Assembly (NCBI GenBank): GCA_964396965.1
Contig: CAYNGD010000006.1
Span: 8,771 to 72,770 of the forward strand
From: an uncultured Dehalococcoidales bacterium
Lineage (GTDB): Bacteria; Chloroflexota; Dehalococcoidia; Dehalococcoidales; BS750m-G39
Direction of reading: 5' to 3'
Length of the DNA: 64,000 nt
In this document: piece by piece, positions 4,240-60,776 of the stretch
How the letters are laid out: each line of letters begins with the position of its first letter
Position numbering within the stretch: the stretch's first letter is position 1
Translations under genes and position numbers: made by a program
The notes under the pieces: model-generated
Database searches by the model: none
What the model was told of the DNA's origin: nothing
The model's input: the letters and a program-made list of their open reading frames with translations, nothing else

Positions 4240-4572
4240 AAATTCTCCAATAAAAAAACCTCTCGCCTTAGGGGCGAGAGGTTAATCCTTCGCGGTGCCA
4301 CCCTAGTTGATTGCCAAAAAGGCAACCATCTCTCTTCGGGTACAGCCTTGGCGATACCCTGGGCTTGCTAACGGTGCCCTTCCGTCAAAGCCTACTCGGT
4401 CATCCCTTTCGGTTTGCGGCTCCCGAGTCCATTCAGCCCCGGCGCTGGCGCCGGTTTCCACCACAAGGCCCAGAAAAATCTCCGATTTTCCCGGGGACCC
4501 TCATCCGGCTCTCTGCCGCCCCGTTCTGGAGCCTACTAGTCTCGTTCTCAGCCTTTGTGCCATATTCAGTTT
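4240..4572 (-). promoter_or_regulatory. T-box riboswitch leader, tryptophan specifier (UGG)
   Basis: Minus strand shows an AGAGA box, a specifier loop GAA-UGG-A (UGG = 4431..4429), an AGUA box, and the conserved T-box AGGGUGGCACCGCG (4304..4291), which competes with the 5' arm of the terminator. The UGGC bulge fits an NCCA end with discriminator G, as in tRNA-Trp. Confidence 0.85.
4252..4282 (-). terminator. Intrinsic terminator of the T-box leader
   Basis: Minus strand reads CCUCUCGCC-CCUAA-GGCGAGAGG followed by UUUUUUU, about 20 nt before the trpE RBS/ATG. Confidence 0.8.
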
Positions 4573-4721: not shown

Positions 4722-4794
4722 GCCCGAGTGGCGCAATGGCAGCGCAACCGACTTGTAATCGGTAGGTTAGCGGGTTCGACTCCCCTCTCGGGCT
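4722..4794 (+). tRNA. tRNA-Thr (anticodon UGU)
   Basis: Acceptor GCCCGAG/CTCGGGC, D arm GCGC-AATGGCA-GCGC, anticodon arm ACCGA-CTTGTAA-TCGGT, and a TTCGACT T-loop. One imperfect pair in the T stem. No encoded CCA. Confidence 0.85.
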
Positions 4795-4814
4795 GGGATT
4801 TACTGGCGATGTGG

Positions 4815-4899
4815 GGAGGGGTGCCGGAGTGGTTAATCGGAGCAGACTGTAAATCTGCCGCCTGAAATGGCTACGCAGGTTCGAATCCTGCCCCCTCCA
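4815..4899 (+). tRNA. tRNA-Tyr (anticodon GUA), long variable arm
   Basis: Acceptor GGAGGGG/CCCCTCC, anticodon loop CTGTAAA, long variable arm, and T arm GCAGG-TTCGAAT-CCTGC. Confidence 0.9.
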
Positions 4900-4940
4900 C
4901 TGTAGCGTAAAAACTAGAAATATGGTATCTTGTTCATAGT

Positions 4941-5013
4941 GCCCACATAGCTCAGTCGGTAGAGCACCATCTTGGTAAGATGGGGGTCACCAGTTCGAAT
5001 CTGGTTGTGGGCT
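4941..5013 (+). tRNA. tRNA-Thr (anticodon GGU)
   Basis: Acceptor GCCCACA/TGTGGGC, D arm AGCTCAGTCGGTAGAGC, anticodon loop CTTGGTAAG, and T arm CCAGTTCGAATCTGG. Confidence 0.9.
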
Positions 5014-12598: not shown

Positions 12599-12650
12599 TC
12601 TGCTATAATAATACAAAATATATAAAATATTCCGGTGACAGCGGGTGCCG

Positions 12651-12774
12651 TCAGGGCTTAATAGACTGCCTGCCGAGGAGATAGAAGGCTTGAAGGTTAA
12701 GTCCTTGTGCGGCAGGCGCAGGGACTTGCTTTTTTAGGCGGATATCAAGTAGTGTTAATCGGGGGTTAAGGGAG
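12651..12774 (+). promoter_or_regulatory. Putative rplJ (L10) leader / attenuator
   Basis: Hairpin AAGTCCTTG...CAGGGACTT (12699..12727) followed by TTTTTT (12730..12735). Upstream CTGCCTGCCG can pair alternatively with CGGCAGGCG. Sits immediately before the rplJ RBS. Confidence 0.45.
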
Positions 12775-13300: not shown

Positions 13301-13915
13301 ATGCCACAAGAAGAAGCCAAAGGCAAAAAAACGGCCAAGGCCGAAGCCAAGGCTGAGGTAGAGGAACCCAAGGCTGAGGCTAAGGTAGAGGAAGCTAAGC
13401 CTGAGGTAGAGAAACCCGAAACCAAGCCTGAGGTAAAAGAACCTGAAGCTAAAGCTGAAGCAAAGGAACCCGCCGCCAAGGCTGAACCTGAAGCTAAGCC
13501 TGAGGCCAAGGAGGCCAAAGCCAAGGCCGGGGCGAAGAGCTCGGCTGCTGTTGAGCAGATAATGGCCAGCATCAAGAAGATGACGGTGCTTGAGCTATCG
13601 GAGCTGGTCAAGGCGCTGCAGGAAGAGTTCGGCGTCAGCGCTCCGGTAGCGGTAGCGGCACCGGCGGCAGCCGCCGCCGAGGCGGCCCCAGCCGCTGAGG
13701 AGAAGACGGAGTTCAGCGTTATTCTCAAGGAAGTCGGGGCTAACAAGATCAGCGTCATCAGAGCGGTGAGGGAGGTGACCACCCTCGGCCTCAAGGAGGC
13801 CAAGGACTTCGTGGAGAGCGCCCCTCAGACGGTAAAAGAAGGGATTAACCAGGAAGAGGCCAATAACATAAAACAGAAGCTGGAAGCGGCCGGGGCTAGC
13901 GTAGAGATTAAATAA
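13301..13915 (+). CDS. rplL: 50S ribosomal protein L7/L12 with an ~80 aa K/E/A/P-rich N-terminal extension
   Basis: The C-terminal ~125 aa are canonical L12 ([19 protein letters not shown] ... [14 protein letters not shown] ... AGASVEIK). ATG 13301 has a GGAGGGA RBS 7 nt upstream. The internal Met88 (13562) has no SD. Confidence 0.9.
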
Positions 13916-19295: not shown

Positions 19296-20237
19296 GTGAC
19301 CGAAAGAATGGTTAAAAGAAGGTATGAAATCTTTACCATTGCCCCCAACTTTTACCAGCTGGGTACCCCCTCCTATCCGGCCTATCTGACGATGGGGGAT
19401 AAAGGGATGATTATCGAGGGGGGCACCGGGGCTACCTTTCCCATTATCGTTGCCCAGCTCCGGGAGCTGGGCAACGAGCCGGAGCGGATAGAATACGTTG
19501 CCCTTACCCATACCCACCCCGACCATTTCGGCGCCGTACCGCACCTAAAGAAGCTGTGGCCTCATCTGAAGGTTATCGCCAGCGACCTGGCGGCTAAGCT
19601 GCTGCAGAAGGAAGAAGTCATCAAGGACTTTGTCCGCATGGATCGCACCATCGCCGAGATTCTGCTGGTCAAGGGCGATATCGACTGGTGGCCCGTCGAG
19701 CTGGAAAACCCGGTCTTCAAAATTGATAGGATTGTCGGCGAGGGGGATAAGATAGACCTCGGTTCGGGTATGGTATGGACCGTTTATGAAACGCCGGGGC
19801 ATTCGCCCTGCCATATCTCCTTTCACAACGAAAGGGATGGCATACTGGTTATCGGGGACGCCACCGGGATATACGAGCCCGACAAAGAGGTCTTCTGGCC
19901 TAACTATTTCCAGTCCCTGGAGGAGTACTGCAACAGCATTCGCAAGCTGGCGGTGCTGCCGGCTAGGATAGGCGCCCGCAGCCACGGCGGTGTTGTCGGA
20001 GGGGAACCCGGGCACTATTTGCGGAGGGTTATAAAAGCTACCGAGGCTTATCACCGCGAGCTGATGGACCGGCTGGCTGGCGGTGAGAGTCCTGAGGCGA
20101 TTGCCCTGGATAAGGCGAAGTGGGTATATACCTTCACCAACCTACAGCCCTTTAAGCTGATACATGCCATGACCGGGCTTACCCTCAGGCTTTCTCAGGC
20201 GGCGGATGGTAAAGAAGGCCTGTTTGGTGTCCCCTGA
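19296..20237 (+). CDS. MBL-fold metallo-hydrolase
   Basis: 313 aa with the HTHPDH (HxHxDH) motif plus later His/Asp ligands. Start codon is uncertain because the RBS is 12 nt from the GTG. Confidence 0.8.
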   Translation: MTERMVKRRYEIFTIAPNFYQLGTPSYPAYLTMGDKGMIIEGGTGATFPIIVAQLRELGNEPERIEYVALTHTHPDHFGAVPHLKKLWPHLKVIASDLAAKLLQKEEVIKDFVRMDRTIAEILLVKGDIDWWPVELENPVFKIDRIVGEGDKIDLGSGMVWTVYETPGHSPCHISFHNERDGILVIGDATGIYEPDKEVFWPNYFQSLEEYCNSIRKLAVLPARIGARSHGGVVGGEPGHYLRRVIKATEAYHRELMDRLAGGESPEAIALDKAKWVYTFTNLQPFKLIHAMTGLTLRLSQAADGKEGLFGVP

Positions 20238-39714: not shown

Positions 39715-39784
39715 ATCTATATATTATATACCATTTTTACCGTCGTTTTGCTTCTAACCCCGCCCCATTTTTAAACCAGTGTTC

Positions 39785-39925
39785 TTTTTCCCATACCCAC
39801 CCGCCCTCAGAGGTTTCACCCTTTTAGACTCTTTTTCCCCTCCGCTCGAAAGGGGCTGACCTCTTTCACTCTTGGGGGGAGTAACCCTTTCCTTATAAGG
39901 GCGGCAGGGCGGGAATAGATAAATC
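39785..39925. repeat. Intergenic repeat copy R2 (G3/C3-tract inverted termini)
   Basis: Left end TTCCCATACCCACCCGCCC plus hairpin. Right end GGGCGGCAGGGCGGGAATAGATAAATC. Lies between dgt and dnaG. Confidence 0.7.
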
Positions 39926-41055
39926 TAGCGGGGTGGGGGAAACTCGTAGTCGCCGAAGAGTGGGAGACTCCTGGCCTGGGGTGGTTTCTTGGCCTTTGGC
40001 TTTCTAATGGGCGGCGGTTGCGGCTTGGGGGTGGGGAAGATCTCCTCAACCATTCTTATGGCGTACTGGTCGGTCATTCCGGCGATGTAGTCCACCACCC
40101 TCCGCTCCAGCTCGTCGCTGTAGAAGCGGTACTCCGCCGGCATTTTATCGGCATTCTCCTTGAAGTATTTATACAGGGTGCGGATTATCTCTCTGGCCTT
40201 CTCCGACTCCTCCTGGGCCGAGCGCACGTTATAGACCCGCTTGAAGAGGAAGTCGCGCAGGGCATCGGTCGCTGCCAGGACCTCCGGGCTCATGGTTATG
40301 GAAGGCCTTTCCCTGGTGTCCGTCATCGAGGGATAGCAGCGTTCGATGATGTCACAGACCATGGTGTTGATGCGCAGGGAGCGGGTGTTGCCCAGGACGG
40401 TGATGGCGGCCAGGGGCAGCTCGCCCTCGGAGAGCATGCCCGCCCTGATGGCATCGTCAATATCGTGGTTGATGTAGGCGATTGAGTCCGAAATCCTGAC
40501 CACCTCGCCCTCCAGTGTTCCGGCCTCCCCGCCCCTGATGCTCTCCCTCTCCTTGGAGTGGTGTAAAATGCCGTCCCTCACCTCCCAGGTGAGGTTGAGC
40601 CCATGGCCGTCGTTCTCCAGCAGGTCCACCACCCGCAGGCTCTGCTCGTTGTGCTTAAAGCCCTTGCGGTAGAGTTCGTTTAAGACATCCTCGCCGACAT
40701 GGCCGAAGGGGGTGTGCCCCAGGTCGTGCCCCAGGGCGATGGCCTCGGTCAGGTCTTCGTTCAGATTAAGCGCCCTTGAGATGGTGCGGGCTATCTGGGA
40801 AACCTCCAGGGTGTGGGTAAGCCGGGTGACGTAGTGGTCGCCCAGGGGGGCGATAAAGACCTGCGTCTTGTGCTTTAAGCGGCGGAAGGCCTTGCTGTGG
40901 ATGATGCGGTCACGGTCGCGCTGGAAGGCGGTGCGCACCGGGCAGGGCTCCTCTGGTCTGGCTCTACCCCGGGAGTACCTGCTCTTGGCGGCGTGCGGGG
41001 AGAGGCTTTCTTCCCTTTCTTCGGCGAGCTGTCGGATATTAAGCCGGCCAATCAT
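39925..41055 (-). CDS. dgt: dGTPase-like HD-domain triphosphohydrolase
   Basis: Shows FQRDRDRIIHSKAFRRLKHKTQVF and HDLGHTPFGH motifs. ATG 41055 overlaps the ppsA stop (ATGA), so it is preferred over the longer track ORF. Has a Pro/Lys-rich C-terminal tail. Confidence 0.85.
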   Translation of the reverse strand: MIGRLNIRQLAEEREESLSPHAAKSRYSRGRARPEEPCPVRTAFQRDRDRIIHSKAFRRLKHKTQVFIAPLGDHYVTRLTHTLEVSQIARTISRALNLNEDLTEAIALGHDLGHTPFGHVGEDVLNELYRKGFKHNEQSLRVVDLLENDGHGLNLTWEVRDGILHHSKERESIRGGEAGTLEGEVVRISDSIAYINHDIDDAIRAGMLSEGELPLAAITVLGNTRSLRINTMVCDIIERCYPSMTDTRERPSITMSPEVLAATDALRDFLFKRVYNVRSAQEESEKAREIIRTLYKYFKENADKMPAEYRFYSDELERRVVDYIAGMTDQYAIRMVEEIFPTPKPQPPPIRKPKAKKPPQARSLPLFGDYEFPPPR

Positions 41056-43310: not shown

Positions 43311-43450
43311 GCTGCTCCTCCTTGTAGTTGTCTTTTAACCGGTGCCGGGGATAAGAACGGGGTCTTTTAATGTCTTGAATTAAGGACTAAAGGGCTTCTC
43401 CTTTGCCTTGATGGTTTAATTATAACATTTAAATACCGCCAAGCAAAAGC

Positions 43451-43607
43451 GGGGGATTCCCCGGTTTTTAAAGTACGTTTTGTTTCCCACTCTCCCACCC
43501 TTCGGAGGCATGGCCTCCAAATCCTTATTCTTGGGGTGGGGGAAAGGGCTTTAGCCCTTTTATATTAAGGGCGGCAGGTGGGAAAAGATATAAAAAGGGG
43601 TGGGGTA
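43451..43607. repeat. Intergenic repeat copy R3
   Basis: Left 50 nt are nearly identical to R6 (CCGGTTTTTAAAGTACGT..TTTCCCAC.CTCCCACCC). Right end reads GGGCGGCAGGTGGGAAAAGATATAAAAAGGGGTGGGG. Confidence 0.75.
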
Positions 43608-43669: not shown

Positions 43670-43698
43670 TTGACAGTGGGGGTGTTGTGGAGTAAAAT
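43670..43698 (+). promoter_or_regulatory. Sigma-70-type promoter for the nuclease gene
   Basis: TTGACA, a 17 nt spacer, then TAAAAT. Confidence 0.55.
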
Positions 43699-47195: not shown

Positions 47196-48707
47196 GTGAC
47201 ATCTAGAGGTCAGGATATCGTCTCCGTTATCAAACAGCAGATTGAGCAGTTCGGCACGGAGCTGGCCATGGTTGACGTCGGCACCGTGATTGAGATTGGC
47301 GACGGCATCGCCCGCATCCACGGGCTGGCGGCGGCCAAATACAACGAATTGCTTGAGTTCCCCAACGATGTTATGGGCATCGCCCTTAATCTGGAGGAGG
47401 ACGGCGTGGCCGCCGTTGTCCTGGGCGACTACACCGGCATCAAAGAGGGGGACGAGGTCAAGTGCACCGGCCGAATCGCCGAGGTGCCGGTGGGTGAAGC
47501 CCTTATCGGCCGGGTGGTCGATTCACTGGGAAGGCCGCTGGACGGCAAGGGCCCGGTCAAGACCAGTAAGGCCCGCCCCCTGGAGAGGGTGGCCCCCAAT
47601 GTCACCAAGCGCCAGTCGGTGGATACCCCGGTGCAGACCGGAATCAAGGCGGTTGACAGCATGTTCCCCATCGGCAGGGGACAGAGAGAGCTCATTATCG
47701 GCGACCGCTCCACCGGGAAGACCGCCATCGCCCTTGACGCCATCATCAACCAGAAGGGCGGCGATTTAATCTGTATCTATGTCGCCATCGGCCAGAAGAC
47801 CTCGCGTGTAGCCCGGGTAGTCAACACCCTGGAGAACTACGGGGCGATGGAACACAGCATCGTGGTGGTGGCCAACGCCGCCGACTCTGTCGCCATGCAA
47901 TACCTGGCCCCCTACGCCGGCTGCGCCATCGGCGAGGAGTTCATGGAGGCGGGCAGGGACGTTTTGATTGTCTATGACGACCTCTCCAAGCACGCCTGGT
48001 CCTACCGTCAGCTCTCCCTGCTTTTGCGCCGCCCCCCGGGGCGGGAGGCCTACCCCGGCGACGTATTTTACCTGCACAGCCGCTTACTTGAGAGGGCGGC
48101 CAAATACGCTGACGAGTTCGGCGGCGGCTCCCTTACTGCTTTACCCATCATCGAGACGCAGGCCGGGGACGTCTCCGCCTATATCCCGACCAACGTTATT
48201 TCAATTACCGACGGCCAGCTCTATCTGGAGACCGACCTCTTTAACGCCGGCATCAGGCCGGCGCTGAACGTTGGCCTGTCGGTGTCCCGGGTGGGCAGCG
48301 CCGCCCAGACCAAGGCCATGAAGCAGGTGGCCAGCCGCCTCAAGCTGGATATGGGCCAGTACCGAGAGGTGGCCGCCTTCGCCCAGTTCGGCACCGCCGA
48401 GCTGGATAAGGCCACCCGGGCCCAGCTTGAGCGTGGCCAGCGCATCACCGAGGTATTGAAGCAGCCCCAGTACGTGCCAGTGCCTTTGGAGAAGCAGGTC
48501 ATGATTCTCTACGCCGCCATCAACGGCTACCTGGACGATGTACCGGTGGATAAGGTCACCGCCTTTGAGGCCAACTTCCACCGCTTTATGGAGGCCAACC
48601 ACCCCAAGATAGGCGACCAGATTGCGAAAGATAAAGAGATCAAACCGGAGACCGAGGATAAACTGAAAGCCGCCATCGCCGAATTTAAGAAGGATATGGC
48701 TTTATAG
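47196..48707 (+). CDS. atpA: F-type ATP synthase subunit alpha
   Basis: 503 aa with GDRSTGKT Walker A and canonical alpha sequence. Confidence 0.97.
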
Positions 48708-48714
48708 GAGAGGG

Positions 48715-48900
48715 CGTTTCTCTTCCCACCCTGACCCGCCCTACAGAGGCTTAGCCTCTAAAACTCCTTAAAAAAGGGGAGTGAAAAACCGAATACGGGG
48801 GAGGCGAAGGTAATATCTCCCCCTTCGTTGGGGGTGGGGAGGAACAAGAAGGCCTAAAAGGGTGAAACCTTTTTGGGCGGGTGGGTATAGGAAGTAAAAC
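48715..48900. repeat. Intergenic repeat copy R4 (inside the atp operon)
   Basis: Left end TTCCCACCCTGACCCGCCC plus hairpin AGAGGC-TTA-GCCTCT. Internal GGGGGAG...CTCCCCC hairpin. Right end GGGCGGGTGGGTATAGGAAGTAAAAC. Confidence 0.75.
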
Positions 48901-48923
48901 ATAAATTTGAGGGATGAAGGGGA

Positions 48924-49271
48924 ATGGAAAAGATGATTGCGTACTGCGGGATAACCTGCACTGAGTGCCCGGCTTTTCTAGCCACCCAGGATGACGACGA
49001 CGCCAAAAGGAAAGAGACCGCCGAGCTGTGGACCAAACAATATAACGTTGATATCAAGCCTGAAGATATAAACTGCGATGGTTGCCTTAGCGATACAGGC
49101 AGACTGGTGGGTCACTGCTACGTCTGCGAGATGAGAAAGTGCGGGCAGGAAAGGGGCGTGGCCAACTGTGCCTACTGCAACGATTACGGCTGCCAGAAAC
49201 TAGAGAAGTTCTTCGAGATGGCGCCGATGTACAGAGCTACCCTGGATGAAATCAGGAAGGGATTACAGTAA
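48924..49271 (+). CDS. Cys-rich DUF3795-like protein
   Basis: 115 aa with 11 Cys in the pattern YCGITCTECP...CDGC...CYVCEMRKC...CAYCNDYGC. Confidence 0.7.
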   Translation: MEKMIAYCGITCTECPAFLATQDDDDAKRKETAELWTKQYNVDIKPEDINCDGCLSDTGRLVGHCYVCEMRKCGQERGVANCAYCNDYGCQKLEKFFEMAPMYRATLDEIRKGLQ

Positions 49272-53316: not shown

Positions 53317-53736
53317 TTATGCTCGTCTCAACGCCCGGGTGATAAAGAATCCGGGCAGGCCGACAATCACCACTGTGGCCAATGTAAAAAGAGCGTCAAC
53401 CCACCAGGACGGGTTTCTGGTTAAAGTTATGAATATGGCAGCCGCCACAATCACTCCCAGAGCGGCAACATAGTAAACCGAGGTGCCTACCAGCGACAAT
53501 ATCCTGCCCGCCGAAAATTTACCGCGTATCAGTAACAGTATGAACCCGGCGATGAGAACCAGAATTCCAAGCATCGGGGCAAATAGGGCCACCGAACTGG
53601 CACTCTGCCCGATATCGGAGGCGGTGCCATGAAAGTAGGCTAGAGCAAAGCCAAAACTATATCGAAATCCCATAAGGAGCAGCATGAACCCCGCCCCAAG
53701 CGCATAGAGCAGGACCCAGAGCCACGTAAGCCGCAT
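53317..53736 (-). CDS. Integral membrane protein (4 TM), unknown function
   Basis: About 139 aa from ATG 53736 (GGAGGTG RBS 6 nt upstream). Hydrophobic throughout. Confidence 0.55.
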
Positions 53737-53768
53737 CCTTGGCACCTCCCACTGTGTTAAGCTGCCCC

Positions 53769-53797
53769 AATATAAGTGATTAATTACAGTGTGTCAA
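53769..53797 (-). promoter_or_regulatory. Sigma-70-type promoter for the membrane protein gene
   Basis: Minus strand reads TTGACA, a 17 nt spacer, then TATATT. Confidence 0.5.
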
Positions 53798-53823
53798 TAG
53801 CTTGAATAGGGCTGTTTAAGAGG

Positions 53824-54008
53824 ACGTTTTATTTCCCACCCTGACCCGCCCTTCGGAGGGTTTGCTTCCCATCCTTGAATTTTTGGGGTTAGGGGAAAAG
53901 GGAGGTTAATTCTCTCCTCTGGGGGTGGGGTGAGAAAGTGTTAGAAGCGGAGCTTACATGGGTGGGTGGGTATGGGAAGAAAAACTGACTTTAAAAGGGG
54001 GTGGGGTT
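53824..54008. repeat. Intergenic repeat copy R5
   Basis: Left end TTTCCCACCCTGACCCGCCC plus hairpin. Right end GGGTGGGTGGGTATGGGAAGAAAAACTG ... GGGGGTGGGG. Confidence 0.75.
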
Positions 54009-54033
54009 GACCTGACTATGGTATAATCGGGTT

Positions 54034-54753: not shown

Positions 54754-55846
54754 ATGCAGGAGCTGAGGGATAAGCTGAAGGACTTGCGGTCCAGAGTCTC
54801 TATAGCCATGGTGCATCTTTGACGTAGCCGGCAGAGAAAAGGAAATCGCCCGTCTGGAGAAGCAGTCGGCTGATCCCGATTTCTGGCAGGAGCCGGAAAG
54901 GGCGCAGGGGGTAATGCGACAGCTTGCCGAGCAGAAGAGGGTGGTTGAGCGCTGGCGGGTGATGGAGGAGAGGACGTCTGAAGTTGCCGAGCTGGTTTCT
55001 TTAGGGGACGAGTCATTACGGGCGGATATTGAGGCCGAGGTGGAGAGATTAGCTTCCCGCCTCGATAAAATGGAGCTTGAGGTGGCCTTCGGTGGTGATT
55101 ACGACGCCAGGAACGCCATCCTGTCGATACACGCCGGGGCGGGGGGGACCGAGTCGCAGGACTGGGCGCAGATGCTGGTGAGGATGTACCTGCGCTGGGC
55201 GGAACGGCGCCACTATCAGGCCGAGGTGCTCGACCTTTCTCCGGGGGAGGAGGCGGGGGTAAAGAGCGTGGTCATCGGGGTTAAAGGCGATTACGCCAAT
55301 GGCTATCTGAAATCGGAGCACGGCGTTCACCGCCTGGTGAGACTTTCCCCGTTTGACGCCGACCACGCCCGGCACACCTCTTTCGCCCTGGTGGAGGTGA
55401 TGCCCGAGGCCGAGGCCGGCGTTGACGTAAGGATAGAGCCGGAAGATTTGAAGGTGGAGACCTTCCGTTCCAGCGGGCCGGGGGGACAGCACATGCAGAA
55501 GACGAGCAGCGCGGTGAGGCTCACCCACCTGCCCACCGGCCTGACGGTCTCCTGCCAGAGCGAGCGCTCCCAGCACCAGAACAAGGAAATCGCCCTGAAG
55601 ATACTCCGCTCCCGCCTTCTGGAGCTTGAGCTGGAGAAAAGGGCGGAGGAGAGGGCTAAACTGAAGGGGAAGCGCATCGCCGCTGGCTGGGGTAACCAGA
55701 TACGGAGCTACGTCCTCCACCCCTACAAGATGGTCAAGGACCACCGAACCGAATACCAGACCAGCGATGCCGATGCCGTCCTCGACGGAGAGCTGGACGG
55801 CTTTATCAATGCCTATTTGCGGTCAATCATGGGCGAGAAGGAATAA
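54754..55846 (+). CDS. prfB: Peptide chain release factor 2, requires programmed +1 frameshift: join(54754..54819,54821..55846)
   Basis: Frame 0 reads MQELRDKLKDLRSRVSIAMVHL and then hits CTT TGA C. The +1 frame continues DVAGREKEIARLEK... and carries SPF and GGQ motifs. Confidence 0.93.
54808..54823 (+). promoter_or_regulatory. RF2 autoregulatory +1 frameshift site
   Basis: ATGGTG CAT CTT TGA C: the canonical CUU UGA C slippery/stop context, with a weak SD-like GGUG 3 nt upstream of CUU. Confidence 0.85.
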
Positions 55847-55850
55847 AAGA

Positions 55851-56057
55851 GGGAATTACCCGGTTTTTAAAGTACGTATTATTTCCCACCCTCCCACCCT
55901 CAAAGGCTGCGCCTCTGAAACTTGCTGCCCAGCCCCTCCACCGGGGGAGAGTTAGAGTTTCCCTCCCGCTGGGGTGGGGCAGGTAAGTATAAGAGGGTGA
56001 AACTCTTTTGGGAGGGAGGATATGGGAAGAAAAACTGGGTTATAATGGGGGAGGGGA
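55851..56057. repeat. Intergenic repeat copy R6
   Basis: Left end CCCGGTTTTTAAAGTACGTATTATTTCCCACCCTCCCACCC. Right end GGGAGGGAGGATATGGGAAGAAAAACTG ... GGGGGAGGGG. Confidence 0.75.
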
Positions 56058-56064
56058 AAGAAGA

Positions 56065-60445: not shown

Positions 60446-60535
60446 GCGGCTTTAGATAGTATAGTTAGTTGGCTTCTGGCCGTCAAACTTTAGTGGTGGT
60501 GAACATGATGGGCGGACTTGACATCTTAGTGATTT

Positions 60536-60776
60536 AAGGGGTGTCTCTCGTCCCACCCTGGCCCGCCCTAAAGAGGTTTCACCTCTAAGGTGTGGAAAAT
60601 CCCCCTTATTCCCCCTTTACTAAAGGGGGAGACTGTTCTGAAGGGCAGAAAGGGCTTTAGCCCTACCATAAACGGCGGTGGGTGAAGACTATCTTGCTCC
60701 CTTCCCCTTGGGGGCGTAGCCCCTTCCATATAAGGGCGGCAGGGCGGGAATAGATAATTAATAAAGGGGCGGGGGT
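60536..60776. repeat. Intergenic repeat copy R7 (composite, three terminus modules)
   Basis: Left end TCCCACCCTGGCCCGCCC plus hairpin. Middle module GGCGGTGGGTGAAG. Right end GGGCGGCAGGGCGGGAATAGATAATTAATAAAGGGGCGGGGG, nearly identical to the R2 right end. Confidence 0.75.

Follow-up and report, generated by a model that had tools for sequence, protein, structure and literature searches.

Four-tract G arrays as the best-conserved core of a two-armed intergenic repeat family in Dehalococcoidales

Whether bacterial G-quadruplexes have selected functions is debated, and the evidence consists mostly of motif counts in single genomes. The same question is raised by a C-rich and a G-rich tract that face each other upstream of nfi, between positions 53835 and 53976 of a 64,000-nt stretch of DNA (the window) from an uncultured bacterium of the Dehalococcoidales, an order with small, streamlined genomes. 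The initial annotation had read these tracts as the termini of a recurrent repeat, able to form either a long terminal hairpin or G-quadruplex and i-motif structures. It is therefore asked here whether such tracts are due to chance, what kind of repeat they belong to, and which of these structures, if any, is under selection. The tract runs proved to form the core, and the part conserved best, of a two-armed family of intergenic repeats that is as yet undescribed.

The tract strings of R2, R4, R5, R6 and R7 were all found at the coordinates first assigned to them (Table 1). The canonical four-G3 form that had been ascribed to them is present in both tracts of R5, in the R2 tract, and in the left tracts of R4, R6 and R7, but not in the right tracts of R4 and R6, which are broken. 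The left arm of R3 likewise has one broken tract, and the canonical form is thus carried by six of the nine type-1 arms in the window. G4Hunter scoring, which had been proposed as a check, gave values of 1.76-2.4, and the tracts are quadruplex-competent by sequence.

Table 1. Positions of repeat elements, their parts and neighbouring promoter-like sites in the window, and of filled and empty sites in related metagenome contigs
Feature	Position	Strand	Sequence or remark
R2 element	39745-39938	- (reverse orientation)	between HD-domain gene stop and dnaG start
R2 right-type tract	39790-39806	G-rich on -	CCCATACCCACCCGCCC; - strand GGGCGGGTGGGTATGGG
R2 partner (type-2 arm)	39877-39938	G-rich on +	GGGCGGCAGGGCGGG
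R3 element	43448-43605	+	between divergent PPDK and bifunctional-nuclease genes
R3 left-arm tract	43486-43500		CCCACTCTCCCACCC; broken
R3 right arm (type-2 arm)	43546-43605		
Promoter downstream of R3	43670-43698		TTGACA-17-TAAAAT; conserved promoter of nuclease gene
R4 element	48705-48921	+	between atpA stop codon and DUF3795 gene, within atp operon
R4 left C tract	48725-48741	G-rich on -	CCCACCCTGACCCGCCC
R4 hairpin	48745-48759		AGAGGC-TTA-GCCTCT
R4 right G tract	48875-48891	+	GGGCGGGTGGGTATAGG; fourth tract broken to GG (TATAGG)
Promoter-like site	53769-53797	-	TTGACA-17-TATATT; outward-facing, 38 nt past R5 left tract
R5, complete element	53815-54006	+	arm model 59.1 and 45.2 bits
R5 left tail	53815-53834		
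R5 left C tract	53835-53851	G-rich on -	CCCACCCTGACCCGCCC; - strand GGGCGGGTCAGGGTGGG, four G3, loops 1, 3, 1; G4Hunter 2.0
R5 interior run	53921-53930		GGGGGTGGGG
R5 hairpin	53945-53955		AAGC-GGA-GCTT
R5 right arm		+	TTAGAAGCGGAGCTTACATGGGTGGGTGGGTATGGGAAG
R5 right G tract	53960-53976	+	GGGTGGGTGGGTATGGG; four G3, loops 1, 1, 3; G4Hunter 2.12
R5 right A-rich tail	53977-53996		
R5 right outer run	53997-54006		GGGGGTGGGG
Extended -10 box	54019-54027	+	TGGTATAAT; just past R5 right arm, ends 6 nt ahead of nfi ATG (54034)
R6 element	55849-56062	+	between prfB and peptidase-MA gene
R6 left C tract	55885-55899	G-rich on -	CCCACCCTCCCACCC; - strand GGGTGGGAGGGTGGG
R6 right G tract	56010-56026	+	GGGAGGGAGGATATGGG; third tract broken to GG (GGA)
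R7 element	60516-60772	+	between tRNA-Ser promoter and serS 3' end
R7 left C tract	60552-60568	G-rich on -	CCCACCCTGGCCCGCCC
R7 type-2 arm	60712-60772		
Filled/empty site	L196:1680-1990		versus L177:6997-7012, L108, L157
Filled/empty site	L177:5905-6120		versus L196:824-832
Filled/empty site	L160:3140-3330		versus L136

Counts of motifs alone are weak evidence here, and only compact motifs, together with where they lie, reach significance. The window shows no enrichment of the bare pattern GGGNGGGNGGG (7 against 5.07 expected), nor of loose quadruplex motifs with loops of up to 7 nt (17 against 12.6 ± 3.5). A regular-expression scan for compact four-G3 motifs with loops of 1-3 nt recovered 7 in the window, compared with 2.1 ± 1.5 in shuffled sequence. 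Six of these 7 fall within the non-coding part, which by our own gene calls makes up 9.6% of the window, every one of them in a repeat arm (the right tract of R5 on the + strand; the R2 tract and the left tracts of R4, R5, R6 and R7 on the - strand), and the tracts are therefore not due to chance. A compact four-tract motif in a coding region, GGGGTGGGTATGGGTAAGGG at 19501-19520 (-), resembles the right-arm core GGGTATGGG; because it is accompanied by neither hairpin nor tail, it is probably a chance occurrence. The first 39 kb of the window contain no repeat arm. Among the ordinary features, which have no connection with the repeats, are a T-box leader at 4267-4558 (-), a tRNA-Thr/Tyr/Thr cluster at 4722-5013 (+) and an L10 leader at 12614-12740 (+), and imperfect tandem repeats spaced 21-45 nt apart (GAAGCYAAGSCTGAGG...) occupy 13343-13537.

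When nhmmer searches were iterated, the "left" and "right" ends merged into one module present in both orientations. Read along its G-rich strand, this arm of ~55-70 nt consists of a small hairpin with a stem of 4-6 bp (typically AGAGG-YGAAR-CCTCT), a variable link of 3-4 nt (TTT, GTA, TGA, ATA and others), four G3 tracts (GGG-Y-GGG-N1-3-GGG-(T or TAT)-GGG) and an A-rich tail (AAG-AAAAAC-N5-TTAAAA), often with GGGGNGGGG. The description of the tracts as repeat termini had to be abandoned: the inverted repeat runs ~20-35 nt beyond them, continuing outward as TTTAAAGTNCGTTTT..TTCCC and often up to an outer GGGGNGGGG or CCCCNCCCC run, so that the tracts are internal to longer arms rather than the true ends of the repeat.

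Two arm subtypes could be distinguished by what precedes the last tract, which is TAT in right-type arms and T in left-type arms. In the latter the middle loop varies (A, T, CT, TT, TCA, TTA and others), and many of their tails end with a terminator-like hairpin and a T run, as on the left of R6, an element whose tail is mutated to TATAAT. A third arm type (type-2), represented by 21 copies in the window and genome loci, reads GGGCTTTAGCCC-N11-GGGYGGCGGGYGGG-AAAAGATATAAAAC-GGGGNGGGG, with TTCCTTAAA standing between the GGGCTTTAGCCC hairpin and GGGYGGCGGGYGGG. The GGGYGGCGGGYGGG stretch is a conserved 3-2-3-3 G pattern and not a canonical quadruplex motif. Type-2 arms are more homogeneous and supply the partner arm in R2, R3 and R7; they often stand directly after a right-type arm, and the elements are thus mosaics of at least three modules.

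The initial annotation had also proposed that each strand carries a C-rich 5' end and a G-rich 3' end, and this was borne out by all 65 adjacent arm pairs in the metagenome loci, in which hairpins point inward and tails outward, with 0 pairs in the reverse arrangement. The family therefore obeys a fixed orientation rule, which makes its elements polar. By composition, 53 of these pairs are left+right, 12 left+left and 0 right+right, and the two subtypes are combined in 24 of 25 pairs of the genome set. The interior between paired arms is variable in length (35-250 nt). In R4 (48790-48845), R5 (53895-53930) and R6 (55925-55982) the interior shows a G-run/C-run/G-run order, e.g. GGGGGAG..CTCCCCC..GGGGGTGGGG.

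Searches with nhmmer placed 91-94 arms in the window and 38 genome loci, and a metagenome set fetched with the left-type pattern added 276 arms in 119 loci. A scan of a genome collection with the right-end pattern matched many contigs of Dehalococcoidales MAGs, some of them in bins labelled "Deltaproteobacteria", and the proteins of the window share 63-89% amino-acid identity with syntenic stretches of these Dehalococcoidales MAGs. The loci do not include the genome from which the window itself comes. The repeats are an undescribed modular, polar intergenic family in a marine/estuarine-sediment Dehalococcoidales clade that includes the organism of the window. A full-text literature search returned no description of such repeats in Dehalococcoidia, and literature on MITE or REP elements in Dehalococcoidia or on G-quadruplexes in Chloroflexi yielded nothing specific.

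Because the loci had been fetched with patterns that themselves contain tracts, conservation was judged only on arms that fail the retrieval pattern. A tract pattern that is lost among copies had been named at the outset as the observation that would speak against the proposal, and the pattern is kept. Intact four-tract arrays are present in 81 of 91 arms of the window and genome loci and, among arms not chosen by the search pattern, in 39 of 47 (genome set) and 132 of 151 (metagenome set); in the set retrieved via left-type arms, 60 of 65 right-type arms are intact. Four G3 tracts are thus kept in 83-92% of arms not picked by search patterns, although these fractions are somewhat inflated, since detection by nhmmer partly rewards G tracts.

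The contrast within the arm is pronounced. The 12 G positions of right-type arms in the metagenome set are 98.8% conserved, compared with 60.6% at hairpin and tail positions. The middle loop occurs in more than 11 variants of 1-3 nt that differ in sequence and length, loop 1 is always C or T, and the T ahead of the last tract and the AAG behind it are conserved. Identity outside the tracts is 0.657 within a genome and 0.642 between genomes; as copies in the same genome are no more alike than copies in different genomes, they are old, and conservation of the tracts does not come from recent copying. Constraint on the G3 tracts is much stronger than on other parts of the arm, with loop sequence and middle-loop length free to drift, and the data favour the G tracts themselves as the target of selection, which would act via a quadruplex or via G-tract recognition. 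Arms that face gene starts are not more often intact than those that face gene ends (89% vs 84%), and broken tracts showed no relation to transcribed context.

A perfect stem of at least 4 bp is found beside the tract in 74% of arms, compared with 14% of shuffled sequences and 35% of chimeras joining halves of different arms, and the stems comprise 27 distinct sequences. These values indicate that the two halves of the arm hairpin co-vary. The per-sequence stem search with its chimera control was used in place of the pair count from a covariance-model alignment, which gave 60.4% paired against 52.4% shuffled, yet reached 67.9% when slid by +2, as purine-run/pyrimidine-run stems can slip. RNAalifold returned no structure for the ungapped arm alignment because hairpin registers differ.

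The single strand of a whole element can also form a long stem via its C and G tracts, with modest fold z-scores (-1.3 to -2.4). Under the G-quadruplex model of ViennaRNA, a single arm is predicted to fold at -25.6 instead of -5.6 kcal/mol, a gain of ~20, and for the intact elements R5 (-72.5 vs -63.0 kcal/mol, RNA parameters) and R2 (-58.8 vs -51.2) the predicted fold with a quadruplex beats the long stem; no quadruplex fold is predicted for R4 and R6, in which the right-arm tract is broken. The long terminal hairpin was ruled out as a selected feature by the variable sites of the two arms, which are independent or even anti-correlated. The cross-arm variable site is complementary in 19 of 60 cases in the metagenome set, where 28.3 would be expected, and reads GC 7, GT 6, AC 6, AT 4 and AA 1 in the genome set. 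Neither the TAT insertion nor any middle loop finds a matching counterpart in the partner arm, and the arms differ systematically. Selection is therefore not keeping left-right pairing beyond the tracts. As for the i-motif, which was not supported, the four C3 tracts that its formation calls for are present on the complementary strand; i-motifs of C3 tracts are unstable at neutral pH.

Copies of the family flank housekeeping genes, including dnaG, an HD phosphohydrolase, pyruvate phosphate dikinase (PPDK), the atp operon, nfi, prfB, a peptidase and serS. Spacers were classed from the calls of a codon-usage gene caller. The 57 spacers with elements comprise 24 divergent, 31 tandem and 2 convergent ones, against 85, 374 and 81 in the background (chi-square ~32), so that divergent spacers are enriched (24/57, or 42%, vs 16%) and convergent spacers depleted (2/57 vs 15%), which argues against a role as terminators. 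An apparent bias of right ends toward gene starts (17 of 24) vanished after this classing: 16 elements in tandem spacers are aligned and 11 anti, and with no bias of polarity there, the early impression of orientation is attributed to the divergent spacers. Strong outward sigma-70-like sites follow 52 of 265 arms in the metagenome set compared with 7 inward-facing, and outward promoter-like sites follow 19 of 90 arms in the genome set compared with 6 inward and 4.4 ± 2.0 in shuffles, at a tract-to-promoter spacing that is broad and not fixed. The elements are found preferentially in spacers that contain promoters, on the upstream side of those facing outward.

In the case of R5, the distance from the extended -10 box to the start codon of nfi, the gene for endonuclease V, suggests that the nfi mRNA is leaderless. 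To the other side of R5 lies a 142-aa ORF (53317-53745, -) that has no Pfam match and scores poorly for coding, yet is preceded by the promoter-like site 53797-53769, which abuts the R5 left arm. The DUF3795 gene behind R4 (48924-49271) sits between atpA and atpG in the ATP synthase operon. The neighbour of R6, prfB (release factor 2), contains a programmed +1 frameshift site, CTT TGA C, at 54817-54823, and for this reason is split in the ORF list into a 310-aa ORF that begins at 54914 and a short one upstream, which starts at the ATG at 54754.

Related loci were also compared for the presence of elements. The PPDK/nuclease spacer and the spacer upstream of nfi hold elements both in the window and in the MAG W73_232 (L032), with differing arm types and numbers. 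In three comparisons of filled and empty sites in related metagenome contigs, whole units of ~200-290 nt are present or absent; one insertion starts directly past a stop codon, and another alters the last codons of a gene.

Such presence or absence of whole units is what would be seen if the elements were MITEs, in which the G/C tracts would simply belong to the terminal inverted repeats that a transposase encoded at another site recognises, and inverted arms of ~55 nt in many copies, intergenic without exception, would fit as well. We nevertheless regard this origin as quite improbable. The arms are inverted copies of one module, as MITE ends should be, but their subtypes differ systematically between the two ends, and the indel boundaries lie outside the arms, near the outer G/C runs, with no consistent target-site duplication at the three filled/empty sites. 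A parent insertion sequence was sought, and no arm pair spans 0.5-3.5 kb in 848 kb of metagenome loci; the genome loci gave no candidate either, the two sets together amounting to ~1.1 Mb of element-rich DNA in which neither an autonomous element nor a transposase was found, and the single ORF between arms is glycosyltransferase-like (GT87-like). The interior length of 35-250 nt and the equal divergence of copies within and between genomes also speak against MITEs, as do searches of plasmid and phage collections, which gave no match, and of viral contigs, which gave one chance hit only. A role of the elements as RNA, in which hairpins and an RNA quadruplex or long stem of UTR structures or small RNAs would control stability, termination or translation, is likewise improbable, although several observations are consistent with it: the covariation of the hairpin, the predicted RNA quadruplex fold that beats the long stem, the place of R4 inside the atp operon, the starts of R2, R4 and R6 within 0-19 nt after stop codons, and the terminator-like hairpin and T run of many left tails. 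Against these stand the absence of a polarity preference in tandem spacers, the 42% of elements in divergent spacers upstream of outward promoters with no known transcript across them, and the depletion of convergent spacers, which would be unexpected of a terminator; Rfam covariance models matched no element at the gathering score, nor at E ≤ 5.

Two explanations remain, both of which concern the G tracts. A quadruplex constraint predicts invariant G3 runs joined by loops of no fixed sequence or length, and the likeliest constraint is tentatively taken to be a quadruplex or else recognition of the G-tract array. This explanation leaves the restricted loop 1 and the conserved T and AAG without a reason, and these, together with the non-canonical 3-2-3-3 pattern of type-2 arms, hint at sequence-specific recognition. 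Also against it, three of nine arms in the window are broken, arms are not more often intact at gene starts than at gene ends, the spacing from tract to promoter is broad, the intact fractions are somewhat inflated by nhmmer, and in duplex DNA the complementary strand competes with the quadruplex. The limitation of loop 1 to C or T, the invariant T and AAG on either side of the fourth tract and the conservation of GGGYGGCGGGYGGG would be accounted for if the tracts were duplex sites for a sequence-specific protein (nucleoid-associated, a regulator or a repeat-spreading enzyme) with GGGN-periodic recognition, the quadruplex potential being incidental, and a position upstream of promoters fits an activator or architectural protein. 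However, rigid duplex recognition sits awkwardly with a spacing of tract pairs to which the middle loop contributes up to 2 nt of variation and TAT a further 2. The tracts also stand at no fixed distance from the promoter, and the co-varying hairpin points to a single-stranded state; duplex recognition is accordingly considered rather unlikely.

The best reading is that the family is a BIME-like mosaic whose arms are hairpin and G-tract modules under purifying selection, placed preferentially upstream of promoters. Selection would act on the G-tract array of each arm separately, and the simplest cause would be that hairpin and quadruplex form once the G-rich strand is unpaired, be it by negative supercoiling behind diverging RNA polymerases, by replication or in read-through RNA. 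The folded structure, or a protein that reads it, could then modulate or insulate neighbouring promoters. A further-reaching proposal, which we hold to be unlikely, is that this would be the first bacterial interspersed repeat with a selected core of G-quadruplex and hairpin, serving either as a promoter-upstream structural DNA switch or as a single-strand site for a copying enzyme. As a switch, placed especially between divergent genes, it would adopt its fold on the non-template strand when transcription generates negative supercoiling, and would adjust or insulate expression across the genome; alternatively, the folded arm would be the single-strand recognition site of an enzyme responsible for copying the units.

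Hundreds of copies, old and diverged and spread over many genomes, amount to a natural comparative experiment in which the four G3 tracts are retained as loops, stems and flanks drift, and the tracts are a promising candidate for a selected G-quadruplex. The family offers ready test sequences, including natural broken-tract controls (R4, R6) and a clear context of promoters and divergent genes, and it documents a substantial repeat load in Dehalococcoidales.

With respect to known quadruplexes, left-type arms such as ATGAGGGTGGGAGGGTGGGAAG and TGAGGGTGGGAGGGTGGGAAG are almost identical to c-MYC Pu22 (TGAGGGTGGGTAGGGTGGGTAA) and T30695 (GGGTGGGTGGGTGGGT). Both are very stable parallel three-tetrad quadruplexes with 1-nt loops, and the MYC element lies upstream of its promoter, where negative supercoiling can unpair the DNA. 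The promoter-upstream position is shared by the arms, but these are bacterial, multi-copy and hairpin-flanked, and the likeness is one of sequence. Correia elements of Neisseria are promoter-adjacent bacterial MITEs with a TA duplication, homogeneous copies and defined inverted ends. They resemble the present elements as small two-ended intergenic repeats that often lie beside promoters, whereas no TA duplication, homogeneous copies or defined inverted ends were found for the arms described here.

Two other families of G-rich repeats have been considered from the viewpoint of DNA structure. The boxC/TMECO intrastrand-triplex repeats of E. coli, with the compact pattern CCCTCNCCC-N3-6-GGGNGAGGG-N3-GGGNGAGGG, adopt a non-B structure in vitro and have been associated with local rearrangement (Holder et al. 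2015, PMC4666352). They too are intergenic repeats with G and C tracts, and the G-run/C-run/G-run interiors of R4, R5 and R6 are of that general type, whereas the C and G tracts of the arms lie at least 70 nt apart, each with four G3/C3 blocks, and do not show the TMECO pattern. The GGGNATC repeats of Xanthomonas and Nostoc are tandem heptamer microsatellites that occur preferentially where the neighbouring ORFs are aligned and are under-represented where these diverge (Rehm et al. 2015, PMC4692102). They are likewise abundant and intergenic, with a preference for exactly four G tracts and with quadruplex formation as the proposed constraint (PMC4692102), whereas the elements described here have single four-tract arrays with 1-3-nt loops in a hairpin-bearing arm and are enriched between divergent ORFs.

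The closest likeness in architecture is to the REP/BIME/REPIN repeats. REPs and BIMEs are mosaic arrays in proteobacteria with two REP subtypes in alternating orientation, and REPINs are mobilised by RAYT transposases. The present arms also form inverted palindrome pairs of two subtypes with linker motifs, and the two systems have in common short hairpin units with co-varying stems, linker modules that give rise to mosaics, and hundreds of intergenic copies. The GTAG that stands next to the REP hairpin is not invariant here and occurs only in a subset of arms, the conserved core being instead the four-tract G array. No RAYT gene was noticed in the genome fragments of 8-15 kb on which the analysis drew. 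Furthermore, REPs form a tight cluster of near-identical sequences, whereas the arms are highly diverged within a genome, and REPs and BIMEs are located at gene 3' ends or in operons, whereas the elements described here are enriched in divergent, promoter-bearing spacers.
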